Part shown: piece by piece, positions 38,003 through 41,124 of the stretch
Numbering within the stretch: position 1 is the first letter of the stretch
How the letters are laid out: every line of letters begins with the position of its first letter
IMG/VR virus record: IMGVR_UViG_3300035180_002210
Span: 8,035 to 72,034 of that record
Origin: a virus
Strand: one strand, 5' to 3'
Length of the DNA stretch: 64,000 nucleotides
Program-made: the position numbers and the translations under genes
Notes under the pieces: model-generated
What the model saw: the letters and a program-made list of their open reading frames with translations, nothing else
Databases searched by the model: none
Told to the model about the DNA's origin: nothing

Positions 38003-41000
38003 TGCAACTATTCAGTAAGGCTATCCAGAACCAGTTTAAGCAGCTCGATCTATTTCACCAGCAAACGTCGTTATTCGATCCGCAGCCAGGGCAGGAGAAG
38101 GAATTTGCTGAAGGTGACCGGCGGAAGCTTCAAATGGCGAAGAATGGGAAGTTACGTTGGATGAACGCGGACGCCGATTCAATGGCCGCAGACCTGAATA
38201 AGAAATTTACGGACTACGTAGGCGCGCTGGATGAAACGGAGTTTTGCCTTACAGCCAGACAGTACCGGGCATATAAAGGGCTGGAGTTTTCCGGCGGGAC
38301 AACCAAGATACAGAGCCCGGCAGACGCAGCGTATTTGTTTAAGCAGCTCAGGGAAGAAGCAATTGAACATGCTTTTGCGGTACATGTGAATAAGGATGGG
38401 GATGCGGTAGTACAGCATTTAGGGACAGGGAAGTTTGATGAATCGGTTGTTGACAGGCAAGCACTTATATCAATGGCAAAAGACTTCGAATCGAAGGAAA
38501 TCTATTTTGTTCATAATCACCCCAGCGGGAATTTACAACCGAGCCGTGATGACGCCTATGTATTGGGGCTGATGCAGAGCGAATTTTCGGGCACCGATAC
38601 CACGCTGAAGGGTATTATTGTTGATACTTTAGAGAATAAGTTCACTGAGTTCAATCCTCAACAAGGCTTTACAACAGATTTGATAGCGGAGGCCCCAGAG
38701 CAGGAAAGGAGTTATCCCGTACTTGCTTTTTCAAAACAATATTTCTACGCCGATATCTCAATTAATAAAAAAATACTCCACCCCGATGATGTAGCGGGGT
38801 ATATCCAGGCAAGCAGGTTCAGCAGCGGAGAGGTGTACCAATTATTGACGCTGAATATTGCGAATAAGGTTATTGGGCGCTTTAATCTAACCAAAATGAA
38901 ATATAGCTATGACCAGGCGAGCCTTGACGAAATAGCCTGGTTAACACTTCATTCCGGAGGCAGTGGCTGCATATTAATGAGCGGTGAAGAACGACTGCCG
39001 GGTGAAGCGCTAAGAGATAAATTAAAGCATTATAGCGTAAATTTACTCGATTATATACGCATATCGCCAGAAAAAAGAAAATTCACGAGCATGGAGGCAA
39101 ACGGCTTCTCTTATGATATACCGGCAGGGAATGACAGCCCGACCGGGCAGGATTATTCGAATGCGGCGGAGCCAGCTACATCCTATAATACCACCAGGAA
39201 GGGATATGCTAAATTTGATGCAAACACGGCCAGCCCAGAGGAGCTAAGAAAAATCCCAGTTGAGGACCTTACGTTCAGCGATAAGAAAAAGCTTTATCCC
39301 CGATTAATAGAAGCATACAAAAAAGCTAAAGAAGAGCTTAGTGCCTTATGGAAAAATCAGGGGAAAGGCGGCGAATGGTTTATCCCGGAAGCAGCAACAT
39401 TTTTGCCGGCAAAATTTTTCCATTATCCGGTGAGCAAAGCGGAGAATAAGGAATTGTATGATAAAATTCAGGCTGCCAAGGGGAGATATGAGGCTTTGAA
39501 GTCTGTTTATGATAAAATATATGACAATTTACTTGTTGAGATTGACGATAAAGGGAAAATTTCTGTTAATTGTGATAACGAGTTTGATTGCGGCAGTTAC
39601 GAAAAGGGTGTTGCCTTTTTGCAAAAGCTCGAACCATCACTGTATGAAGCTTTTATGAAGGATAAGAGCAGACCATCCACGGGACTATTCGGGAAAAGTG
39701 TAGTTATATTCGGGAAATCGTTAAAACCTACGATGCCATCTGTTAGTAAAGCACCGGCCACCCAACCGGGACAGGAGAAGCCCGGCCACAAATATGTGAA
39801 GCGTGAACGGGATCAGAAACACCCCGGGAAATACATTTATTATTATAAAATGCCGAACGGGCAGATTGAGGCGAGCAATGACGCCAACGGCCCGGATAAA
39901 TCACCGGCGGCACCGGATAATGCAGTACCAGGCAATACCGCGCATGATACACAGGCAGAAAACTTTACTCAGGACCAAGGCGACGGCCAGCAGCAAACAC
40001 AGAACAATGATCAGCAGCAGGGAGCGGCGCAGGATCCGGCAGCAGCAGCGGAAGCAAAGAAGAATGCCGATGATCCGGACTATGTTGACTACGCCAGAAT
40101 CAAAAAGGTTTATGGCCTACGCCAGCCGGAGATTCAGGTAATTGAAAACCTTGCAACAGACTACATGCGAAAGGCGAAATTCCAGAAAGGAAGATTCCTT
40201 GAGGATGTTGATGCTATTTGTGAGGAAGGCGGGATAAAAGGAGTTTTGCCGAGCATTCGCTTTGGTGAGTTCGCCGTAAAGGGCAAAGGGAGTATTTTTG
40301 ACAAAGCGCTGAGGAATATTGCCAAGGGAAGGCCGGAAAAGAACTATGAGTTTTCGGATATCCTACGGACAACGATTGTGATTAACAGCCCGAAGCAGGC
40401 AAAGAAGCTGAGAAGTTTGCTGGAAAAGAAAGGGTATGAATTTTTAGAAGATGAAAATTTGTACGATAGTACCACACCCGGATATAAACATATTGCCTGG
40501 AAGGTCAGGCGGGGCAAGGACGATCCGTTGGTGAAAGAAATTCTACTAATGCGGCCTAACATGCTGGAAGCAAAATTCGGGCTGGGACACGGGCTTTATG
40601 ACGTTGAGAAGCATATTATTAAACTTATGCCGAAGATTGAAAGGCACAAAGACCTTGCAGGGTTTCTAACCGGGGTGAAAGAAATTTTAGGTTCGCACAT
40701 GAGCCAGTTTTATGAAGACGCATATTACCGGGATTTAGAGGAAGAGGGCGGAGCTGCGCTTGATGATCATGCCGGTTCAACTGTGAAAGAACCATCTTCG
40801 CGTTCTTCATATTCGACAGAGACGGACCCGAGTGAAACGAACGCTACAAGCAATTCTTCGAGTTTGCCTTCTGCGGCTAAAGACTTATCGAGCAGCACAA
40901 TGACATCACTGATGGGCTTTTTGAATGACATGTGGCAGCCGATTTCAGCTAATTTATCTACTTCTTCAGGAGTGAGTCCGAGGCGCTCTGCCAAGGCAGC

Positions 41001-41124
41001 AAAGATAGATTCTATTTTCTCTTTCATCGTTGAACCATTGGGTAAGTTGCATAAAAAATACAGTCAGAATATAATCAATAAGAGTACCAGATTCAAGCGG
41101 TTCTTTAGTACCAAGGTGAAATAA
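38002..41124 (+). CDS. Polyvalent protein 3: RadC-like JAB + degenerate second JAB + RelA/SpoT-type small alarmone synthetase domain
   Basis: EHAFAV...FVHNHPSGNLQPSRDD (about 38512); second copy lacks the His residues; synthetase motifs VKGKGSIFDK, DILRTT, PGYKHI, KEILL, GHGLYD (about 40270-40610). Confidence 0.8.
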   Translation: MQLFSKAIQNQFKQLDLFHQQTSLFDPQPGQEKEFAEGDRRKLQMAKNGKLRWMNADADSMAADLNKKFTDYVGALDETEFCLTARQYRAYKGLEFSGGTTKIQSPADAAYLFKQLREEAIEHAFAVHVNKDGDAVVQHLGTGKFDESVVDRQALISMAKDFESKEIYFVHNHPSGNLQPSRDDAYVLGLMQSEFSGTDTTLKGIIVDTLENKFTEFNPQQGFTTDLIAEAPEQERSYPVLAFSKQYFYADISINKKILHPDDVAGYIQASRFSSGEVYQLLTLNIANKVIGRFNLTKMKYSYDQASLDEIAWLTLHSGGSGCILMSGEERLPGEALRDKLKHYSVNLLDYIRISPEKRKFTSMEANGFSYDIPAGNDSPTGQDYSNAAEPATSYNTTRKGYAKFDANTASPEELRKIPVEDLTFSDKKKLYPRLIEAYKKAKEELSALWKNQGKGGEWFIPEAATFLPAKFFHYPVSKAENKELYDKIQAAKGRYEALKSVYDKIYDNLLVEIDDKGKISVNCDNEFDCGSYEKGVAFLQKLEPSLYEAFMKDKSRPSTGLFGKSVVIFGKSLKPTMPSVSKAPATQPGQEKPGHKYVKRERDQKHPGKYIYYYKMPNGQIEASNDANGPDKSPAAPDNAVPGNTAHDTQAENFTQDQGDGQQQTQNNDQQQGAAQDPAAAAEAKKNADDPDYVDYARIKKVYGLRQPEIQVIENLATDYMRKAKFQKGRFLEDVDAICEEGGIKGVLPSIRFGEFAVKGKGSIFDKALRNIAKGRPEKNYEFSDILRTTIVINSPKQAKKLRSLLEKKGYEFLEDENLYDSTTPGYKHIAWKVRRGKDDPLVKEILLMRPNMLEAKFGLGHGLYDVEKHIIKLMPKIERHKDLAGFLTGVKEILGSHMSQFYEDAYYRDLEEEGGAALDDHAGSTVKEPSSRSSYSTETDPSETNATSNSSSLPSAAKDLSSSTMTSLMGFLNDMWQPISANLSTSSGVSPRRSAKAAKIDSIFSFIVEPLGKLHKKYSQNIINKSTRFKRFFSTKVK
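40767..41027 (-). CDS. Nested antisense gene, 86-aa acidic helical protein; candidate antitoxin of the synthetase domain
   Basis: Protein-like amphipathic sequence MKEKIESIFAALAERLGLTPEEVDKLAE..., while the overlapping + frame is Ser-rich (about 24/87); own promoter 40 nt upstream. Confidence 0.75.
   Translation of the reverse strand: MKEKIESIFAALAERLGLTPEEVDKLAEIGCHMSFKKPISDVIVLLDKSLAAEGKLEELLVAFVSLGSVSVEYEEREDGSFTVEPA
41068..41096 (-). promoter_or_regulatory. Antisense sigma70-type promoter for 40767-41027
   Basis: TTGAAT (41096-41091), 17 nt, TATATT (41073-41068). Confidence 0.7.

Follow-up and report, generated by a model that had tools for sequence, protein, structure and literature searches.

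The DNA analysed here is a 64,000-nucleotide stretch, called the window in the following, of a 72-kb virus record in IMG/VR (IMGVR_UViG_3300035180_002210, positions 8,035 to 72,034), and almost all of its long open reading frames (ORFs) are on the plus strand. One of them (38002..41124, +) encodes a polyvalent virion-module protein of 1040 amino acids (aa), which consists of a RadC/JAB domain, linkers, a domain with a predicted RelA/SpoT-homologue (RSH) synthetase fold and a tail predicted to be disordered. Opposite this tail, on the minus strand, is a nested ORF of 86 codons (41027..40767), with its ATG at 41027 and its TGA at 40769-40767, which predicts an acidic four-helix protein. An earlier note, made from the letters alone, had interpreted this arrangement as a toxin whose antitoxin is embedded antisense in the toxin gene. 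We conclude that, with high probability, the minus ORF is a genuine gene, because it is open in all six related loci with DNA, has free-standing homologues and has a confidently predicted fold.

The antisense frame and its family

The earlier note had described the minus ORF as encoding an acidic helical protein, and its description was upheld by the ORF itself, by the composition (E14 D4 K7 R2) and by the model. AlphaFold2, run on 13 family members, gave a four-helix small protein with a per-residue confidence (pLDDT) of 81.3 and a predicted template-modelling score (pTM) of 0.68. The third codon positions of the minus and plus frames coincide, as derived from the coordinates. A codon model trained on the plus genes of the phage gave a log-likelihood (LL) difference, LL(plus) - LL(minus), of -11.5 over the 86 codons. 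The control windows, 717 stretches of 86 codons within plus genes, had a mean of +42.8, a standard deviation of 13.4 and a minimum of -0.28. When the score was split into its amino-acid (-3.4) and synonymous-codon (-8.1) components, each was a low outlier, and the GC skew drops from ~0.25 to ~0.01 over 40700-41100.

Genome searches provided the DNA of five related loci (L001, L007, L008, L009 and L011), all in genomes of the order Ignavibacteriales. Together with the window, these are the six loci on which the DNA-based counts below are based; P0004, P0005 and P0007-P0010, which are known as proteins only, are left out of them. The plus proteins are 25-64% identical to that of the window. In 6/6 loci, the antisense frame that shares its wobble positions with the plus frame stays open over 79-95 codons, and its ATG is at the identical aligned position each time. 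Among proteins, the relatives of the plus C-terminal module were P0003, P0004, P0005 and P0006. The phage GenBank collection gave no match to blastn of 39900-41400 or to tblastn of the small protein. In IMG/VR, no relative was found with the small protein, the alignment of the plus C-termini, the 303-aa protein encoded downstream, P0007 or P0008 as query, nor in the JGI metagenomes with alignment A1 or P0005. In the protein collection, the small protein was present solely from a 1747-base contig, and a word-based search with it alone returned only itself. The ESM Atlas had no usable match for it, and Pfam gave no family above the cut-off for the 13 members of its family.

A profile of the minus proteins of the window and L001 was compared with 1.8 billion representative proteins. 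It aligned over the full length with four proteins of 80-95 aa, namely P0007 (E 1.2e-7), P0008 (8.9e-6), P0009 and P0010, with E-values ranging from 1.2e-7 to 1.4e-4; the P0007 cluster was located on contigs of up to 199 kb. In addition, when the family profile was compared with all six frames of 401 genomes of the phylum, free-standing members of the small family came to light, and such homologues occur in genomes of the class Ignavibacteria. In L015, a free-standing gene of 77 aa has ABC-ATPase genes on one side and a LacI-type regulator on the other, and its antisense frame contains 2 stops. The free-standing copy in L016 adjoins an integrase and has 3 stops in the antisense frame. In L018 (1498-2160, +), the small-family domain is the N-terminus of a 220-aa protein with a 135-aa C-terminal extension that has no Pfam match; the antisense frame is without stops, and the gene is downstream of a response-regulator/cyclase-like gene. 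A class-level genome search with alignment A1 returned, besides G001, just the weak matches L004-L006 (E 2e-4 to 7e-4), and L004 is a chromosomal free-standing copy between ammonia-lyase-like and outer-membrane-like genes. Finally, L013 (1426-1816) is a remnant in which both strands are open, with a small gene (116-aa frame) and an antisense tail ORF (125 aa, ...SLNAIWQPLFASS...); it has no synthetase domain and no surrounding phage genes.

The free-standing genes in turn recognised the nested ones. A profile made from L015, L016 and L018 only had 8 matches at E<=10 among 778 ORFs, taken from all six frames of the window and the other loci. Six of them were the nested ORFs of L008 (8.6e-21), L009 (2.1e-20), L007 (5.1e-14), L011 (3.3e-8), the window (1.3e-7) and L001 (1.7e-4), and the other two were L013 and L004.

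Conservation of the two frames and upstream signals

The plus strand opposite the small gene encodes a Ser-rich C-terminal tail (residues 917-1040, 40750..41121, +), which ends ...IVEPLGKLHKKY..NIINKSTRFK.... The Ser-rich character that had been proposed for it was evident, with 24 Ser in the 86 residues over the small gene, where C occupies codon position 2 in 45% of the codons. The plus frame had also been said to stay open to an IINK|S motif and the C-terminus, and it does: the frame runs through ...NIINKSTRFK... and closes with a TAA that shares bases with the ATG of the following gene at 41124. In 6/6 loci, the open plus ORF spans the small gene, and its stop falls at the beginning of the same following gene or slightly within it. 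The last part of the tail is a short conserved peptide beside that gene start.

Conservation in each frame was expressed as BLOSUM62 per site across distant lineage pairs. In the synthetase domain, which served as the control, the plus frame scored 1.83 and the minus frame, a shadow there, 0.63. In the motif half of the overlap, the scores were 1.75 for the plus and 1.83 for the minus frame, and in the region beyond the ATG of the small gene they were 1.06 and 0.27. Over the first 48 columns, the true frame of free-standing pairs scored 1.64 and their shadow frame 0.49; for nested pairs, the values were 1.83 for the frame of the small gene and 1.69 for that of the big ORF. The conservation of the minus frame in homologues, a check suggested in the earlier note, was thus observed both as openness in every locus and as a coding-like score. 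Since both frames are conserved like coding frames in the nested loci, above the level of passive shadows, true dual coding is indicated, and we consider it probable that both frames are functional.

The tail has several properties that would be expected if the minus gene alone were functional and the plus frame were open merely to reach a stop beside the next gene (translational coupling) or to add a short terminal peptide. It is predicted to be disordered (pLDDT <50 over model residues 228-351, AlphaFold2) and has a shadow-like composition. Its codons are rare in the phage; TCT accounts for 7% of the Ser codons in phage genes, yet it is the commonest Ser codon of the tail (by eye). The linker half of the tail is weakly conserved in the plus frame (identity 0.18, BLOSUM 0.37), and GCQI of the small protein necessarily casts IWQP, a motif of the plus frame, as its shadow. 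Nevertheless, we regard this explanation as unlikely. The plus score of 1.69-1.75 in the motif half is far above that of passive shadows, and the Trp is retained in 7/8 plus sequences, whereas the matching residue varies in the free-standing small proteins. Furthermore, Tyr, His and Gln, the only residues able to create stops in the plus frame, number 1-2 in the nested small proteins and 2-6 in the free-standing copies that were checked on DNA, which fits selection keeping the plus frame open.

Several results weigh against coding on both strands, or against the minus gene itself. Given the minus protein, the plus frame would be open with a probability of 0.19-0.77 per locus, and given the plus protein, the minus frame would be open and have its ATG with a probability of 0.13-0.47 per locus (synonymous shuffles). 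The six nested loci with DNA represent only about four independent lineages, over which the product of these chances is only ~0.01-0.02. Openness of a second frame alone is weak evidence. In the window/L001 pair, changes at codon positions 1 and 2 were 21 and 22 in 87 codons, and wobble changes that alter an amino acid were as common as silent ones in both frames. This pair by itself gives no clear selection signal in either frame. For the comparison of codon positions that the earlier note had suggested, these counts do not separate the frames. Moreover, no RNA run was listed as containing the stretch. The contigs of four DNA runs over 39500-42000 were identical to the window and showed no polymorphism within the population; one of these runs may be the source sample.

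The chance of an open minus frame with its ATG, the lack of RNA evidence, the chance density of promoter-like sites described below and the absence of minus-frame constraint in the wobble test of the closest pair would all suit a minus ORF that is unexpressed in the phage copies, either a relic or a shadow kept open by selection on the plus tail and the coinciding wobble. We judge this to be quite improbable. A passive shadow scores ~0.5-0.6 BLOSUM per site at the divergence of these loci, well below the minus frame, and every one of the six nested ORFs is detected by the profile made from free-standing genes. In addition, the hydrophobic core columns of the family are kept at places where the plus protein switches between Met/Ile and Arg/Lys (by eye), the fold is confident and the codon model prefers the minus frame.

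Upstream of the small gene is the sigma-70-like site TTGAAT-17-TATATT (41068..41096, -), the -10 hexamer of which ends 40 nt before the ATG. The earlier note had called it a near-consensus promoter. The site is present at that place, but with 9/12 matches the term was generous, and the density of such sites is not above chance (14 in a 10-kb region vs 17.2 +/- 3.6 in shuffles). The scoring used a sigma-70-type consensus, which may not be the promoter type of the host. L001 and L007 have hexamers and spacing identical to those of the window, at 40 nt and 64 nt, respectively. L008 and L013 have weaker 8/12 pairs at 40 nt, and in L009 and L011 no hexamer pair passed the filter at the corresponding place. 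The conservation is confounded, because the same bases also encode the conserved plus residues N-I and R-F-K/N. Therefore, the hexamers shared across the loci are suggestive only.

A GG-containing, Shine-Dalgarno-like TGGT (41034..41037, -) is located 8-9 nt before the ATG, and GGT, GGA or GGAG occurs at that distance in all 6 nested loci (by eye); on the plus strand, TGGT falls on the codon of an invariant Pro (Pro 323 of the plus alignment). Between the promoter-like site and the ATG is a block of 24 nt that is identical in the window and L001 (41038..41061). This is the longest identical run in ~970 aligned codons; there are three 20-nt runs elsewhere, so the block is only mildly unusual. 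TAnnTTTG is the -7 box of Bacteroidota promoters, and TAnnTTTn strings were seen 20-44 nt before the ATG in 6/6 nested loci (window 41053-41060, -). On the plus strand, these strings are A/T-rich Lys and Tyr codons, and we dropped the Bacteroidota-type box as evidence.

The RSH-fold domain and its predicted partner

The domain that precedes the tail, with its flanking helices, covers residues 690-916 (40069..40749, +). AlphaFold2 on 8 sequences modelled it as residues 1-227, with a mean pLDDT of 63-96 per 10-residue block and of at least 77 up to residue 170. The top Foldseek matches were small alarmone synthetases, led by 8vx3 (E 4.7e-5, probability 1.00) and followed by RelP, CapRel, SpoT, Tas1 and FaRel2. 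The E-values ranged from 4.7e-5 to 1e-3, with 8vx3, 6ex0 and 7ztb at or below 7e-4 and 7qpr at 1.1e-3. These model-based matches support a RelA/SpoT-homologue synthetase fold for the domain before the small gene. In a comparison by eye with motifs typical of such synthetases, the Asp of SD[IV]LRTT (putatively Mg-binding) is present in 7/8 sequences and the Glu of KE[IL] (putatively catalytic) in 8/8. On the other side, Pfam RelA_SpoT (PF04607) had no match at E<=0.1 in the whole protein, its best E being 0.18, in 1/3 members. The basic ATP-binding motif is altered, in that the first basic residue of the RxKxxxSxxxK type is Ala (by eye), and L011 is without the Asp of the SD[IV]LR motif. Profile searches of PDB sequences with the domain found nothing related. 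The RelA/SpoT-type domain named in the earlier note was thus recovered as a fold, but not as a Pfam family.

Structure prediction of the complex was a further check proposed in the earlier note. The RSH domain (230 residues, 8-row alignment) and the small protein (13-row alignment) were modelled together with scores of 0.72, 0.72 and 0.71, whereas the best of three controls scored 0.02. In a benchmark of this score, the mark was attained by 58/80 solved complexes and by 2/110 mismatched pairs, figures that are approximate here since custom alignments were used. The three runs share at least 90% of their contacts, with a partner pLDDT of at least 85. The predicted interface joins residues 860-906 of the large protein with residues 33-77 of the small protein. 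Conservation within the domain is comparatively low in part of the contact surface on the large protein (~40609-40729), and in the small protein it is lower in the C-terminal than in the N-terminal half; low conservation at the predicted contact would suit a co-evolving interface. The models support binding of the small protein to the RSH domain.

The distribution of the two elements is consistent with such a link. In 6/6 DNA loci that bear the RSH-tail module, the nested small gene has an unchanged position, and domain, tail and nested gene together form the C-terminal part of proteins that range from 409 to 1446 aa and differ in their N-terminal domains. A pair that recombination cannot separate, as the earlier note had imagined it, would fit a module that moves as a unit.

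A real and expressed minus gene might nevertheless have a function that is unrelated to the RSH domain, for example as a regulator, a host-takeover factor or a lysogeny factor that used the free strand of a tolerant disordered tail. Free-standing homologues are found in varied chromosomal settings, and the RSH-tail module was not found in any of the 3 genomes with free-standing or weak small-gene matches. One homologue, that in L018, is fused to an unrelated 135-aa extension. Conversely, G727 has a related RSH-like segment, and no small-family gene was detected in this genome. The segment (L012, G727:C1:61544-64990) is 32% identical to residues 85-238 of P0006 (E 7e-14) and is part of a 1352-aa open frame, in the L012 portion of which no WQP tail motif was found. 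Free-standing homologues without the module and a domain without the small gene mean that the link is not obligate. In addition, neither Foldseek (best E 1.5) nor VIA-align (best Z 4.7) matched the small protein significantly to a solved antitoxin or immunity protein, with the presence of the IapK chain in the library unchecked; the lack of a fold match is not evidence that the fold is new. Finally, the complex score is the confidence of a model and not a measurement. These results all count against a dedicated partner of the RSH domain. Opposed to them are the constant position of the nested gene in the module loci, the movement of the module as a unit between protein architectures and the wide gap between the complex score and its controls. 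On balance, an unrelated function seems somewhat unlikely to us.

Of the toxin and embedded antisense antitoxin in the earlier note, the nested gene thus very probably stands and the binding is predicted. The free-standing homologues and G727 speak against a strict pair, and a classic addiction-type toxin-antitoxin pair is, in our view, improbable.

A separate observation concerns L001, the closest relative, where a SocA/Panacea antitoxin gene (PF13274, E 2.4e-21; L001:7224-7808, -) follows ~1.2 kb downstream of the polyvalent gene, in the opposite orientation, and a small HSDR_N_2-like ORF (L001:6995-7255, -) adjoins it. In this phage, the RSH domain might have the Panacea protein as an additional partner of the conventional kind. 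A Panacea gene did not turn up in the phage record of the window.

Genomic setting, precedents and biological meaning

The 1040-aa ORF is located in a virion module, with genes for a head maturation protease, a major head protein, an endolysin and a virion-protein-like product upstream and a conserved 303-aa protein after it. At E<=0.1, Pfam found only RadC in the 1040-aa protein and no MuF domain. The RadC-like JAB domain comprises residues 104-187 (38311..38562, +; Pfam PF04002 E 9.8e-13, PHROG 10276 E 1.1e-7). A RadC/JAB and an RSH-fold domain are thus combined in one ORF among virion genes, and this multi-domain make-up and setting fit the polyvalent class as outlined in the pertinent parts of Iyer et al. 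2017 (PMC5512222). The next late gene (41124..42035, +; 303 aa, PHROG 16819, function unassigned) overlaps the polyvalent stop with its start and has the same position in all related loci. The RSH-tail ORF is flanked by the same two genes in the window, L001, L007, L009 and L011 where the locus reaches that far: upstream by a protein of 227-243 aa with a CxCVGENNG motif (window 37319-38002), and downstream by a protein of 300-339 aa (PHROG 16819). L008 contains only the downstream one. The N-terminal domains of the middle ORF vary among the loci, and relatives of the RSH-tail protein have different N-terminal domains, including Pfam PF18798 and PF18796 (precomputed).

Repeats of an (L/I)FGK(S/T)-like motif were noticed at the start of the RSH-tail module (window 39682-39720) and at the N-termini of the P0006, P0003 and L009 ORFs, examples being GLFGKSVVIFGKS, MILFGKS, KLFGKTVRLFGKS and MKLFGKH. 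Comparable [LI][FI]xK[SA] strings occur close to the end of the tail (NIINKS, LIINKS, SLFKSN and PLFKAN). These motifs may be a processing or targeting signal.

The window has two further multi-domain giants upstream of the 1040-aa protein. That at 22266-29009 combines InPase, an Eco57I-type methylase and an SNF2 helicase. That at 17846-22231 combines ddrB-ParB, a PBECR1 nuclease and a weak match to HD_4 (E 8.7e-5, under the Pfam cut-off), which we take to be the (p)ppGpp-hydrolase type of HD domain. If a hydrolase in this giant were packaged along with the synthetase, it would be a counterpart of Aph1 in the MuF systems.

In function, the known system nearest to the present one is MuF-Apk2/IapK/Aph1. 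According to the passages of PMC12226406 that deal with it, MuF-Apk2 RSH toxins of temperate phages are accompanied by a binding immunity protein, IapK, and a hydrolase, Aph1. As far as these passages go, the likeness to the MuF-Apk2 toxins (see also PMC5576092) is that an RSH-fold effector domain ends a phage head-module protein and has a small partner, the binding of which is predicted here. A hydrolase-type partner may also exist here, given the weak HD_4 match. In contrast, iapK and aph1 follow the toxin gene (PMC12226406, same passages), whereas the small gene here is antisense and inside the effector frame. Another difference is that the present protein has no MuF domain, and the next gene on the same strand encodes the conserved 303-aa structural-module protein.

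The toxic small alarmone synthetases (toxSAS), such as FaRel, FaRel2, PhRel and CapRel, resemble the present case in having an RSH fold, here near CapRel and FaRel2, and a small partner, here a predicted binder (PMC7229694 and PMC11782079, in the parts relevant to these toxins). Their two-gene operon form is described in the relevant part of 10.1101/2023.03.22.533649. Unlike them, the domain here is within a 1040-aa virion-module protein and the candidate partner is nested on the opposite strand. toxSAS also occur as fused proteins, and their toxin and antitoxin are on one strand. The comparison with Panacea antitoxins also fails at the domain level: none of the 13 small-family members matched PF13274 at E<=1, and no gene of this kind was found in the present phage record.

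For polyvalent proteins, the relevant passages of PMC5512222 list RelA/SpoT among the domains and propose that it triggers an alarmone-like host response. The multi-domain protein in a phage structural module is alike; unlike the proteins in those passages, the present lineage is tied to metagenome-assembled genomes of Ignavibacteriales. The word 'antisense' occurs 0 times in PMC5512222, and no nested partner gene is described in its relevant passages. Pore-forming (ionophoric) colicins have an immunity gene opposite the toxin strand with its own promoter, and because of this immunity is made while the toxin operon is off (PMC9517006, in the section on these genes). The expression logic proposed here is the same. 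The immunity gene of colicins is beside the toxin gene, outside its coding sequence, and no bases code for both proteins. In E. coli O157:H7 and P. aeruginosa, ORFs fully embedded antisense in annotated genes have been described, and those of P. aeruginosa were considered evolutionarily novel (PMC9927249, PMC8850804 and PMC7457138, in the passages on such ORFs). By contrast with the ORFs in these passages, the small gene here has a free-standing family, and the arrangement is kept down to ~25% identity of the plus protein; here the overprinted frame would be the tail of the long gene. In the literature searched, as represented by its relevant parts, no antisense-nested partner turned up: an effector with a binding partner is of a known kind, and the dual-strand architecture is unprecedented there.

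Taking these results together, we lean towards the interpretation that the 3' end of the polyvalent gene codes on both strands, the plus strand for the RSH domain and the disordered tail and the minus strand for an older, nested small gene whose product neutralises or controls the RSH effector. Only the small family exists alone and the plus tail looks overprinted, from which we infer that the small gene was the older partner and that the polyvalent ORF later grew across it on the other strand. The small protein would bind the C-terminal helices of the RSH domain (residues ~860-906) and, as an immunity or antidote protein, neutralise or control the effector. We consider it about as likely as not that it both binds and neutralises the RSH domain. 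The antisense position would allow the small protein to be made when the late genes are silent, early in infection or in the lysogen, and converging late transcription would shut the small gene off. Such mutual exclusion would resemble opposite-strand colicin immunity genes and excludons, to judge from the pertinent parts of PMC9517006 and PMC12288877.

A more tentative version, which we regard as possible, is that the effector and its antidote share DNA to form a timer. The small gene would be a pre-existing immunity-type gene that was captured at the end of the effector gene, and the free-standing copies would be orphan immunity genes that bacteria retain against injected effectors. The injected RSH domain would strike the host at entry, and the antisense gene, transcribed during the silence of the late genes, would then yield the product that switches the effector off. 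In the lysogen, this product would protect against related superinfecting phages. Late transcription would silence the antidote by collision, and the new effector would be packaged active.

For bacteria and phages, long genes that overlap in antisense are a matter of dispute, and most candidates are young ORFs in single species. Given a family with free-standing members, and nesting that is kept across phages and prophages at 25-64% identity of the plus protein, the comparative evidence for two-strand coding is unusually strong at the present locus. The usual story also seems to be reversed here, since the tail of the long gene would overprint an older small gene. If the small protein neutralises the RSH domain, the locus would represent a new effector-immunity architecture in which the two genes are physically inseparable and their expression is mutually exclusive. 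It would then provide a new partner family for alarmone-synthetase-like effectors and a handle on how phages control injected polyvalent effectors. Since standard gene callers drop such genes, similar hidden partners may be missed elsewhere.

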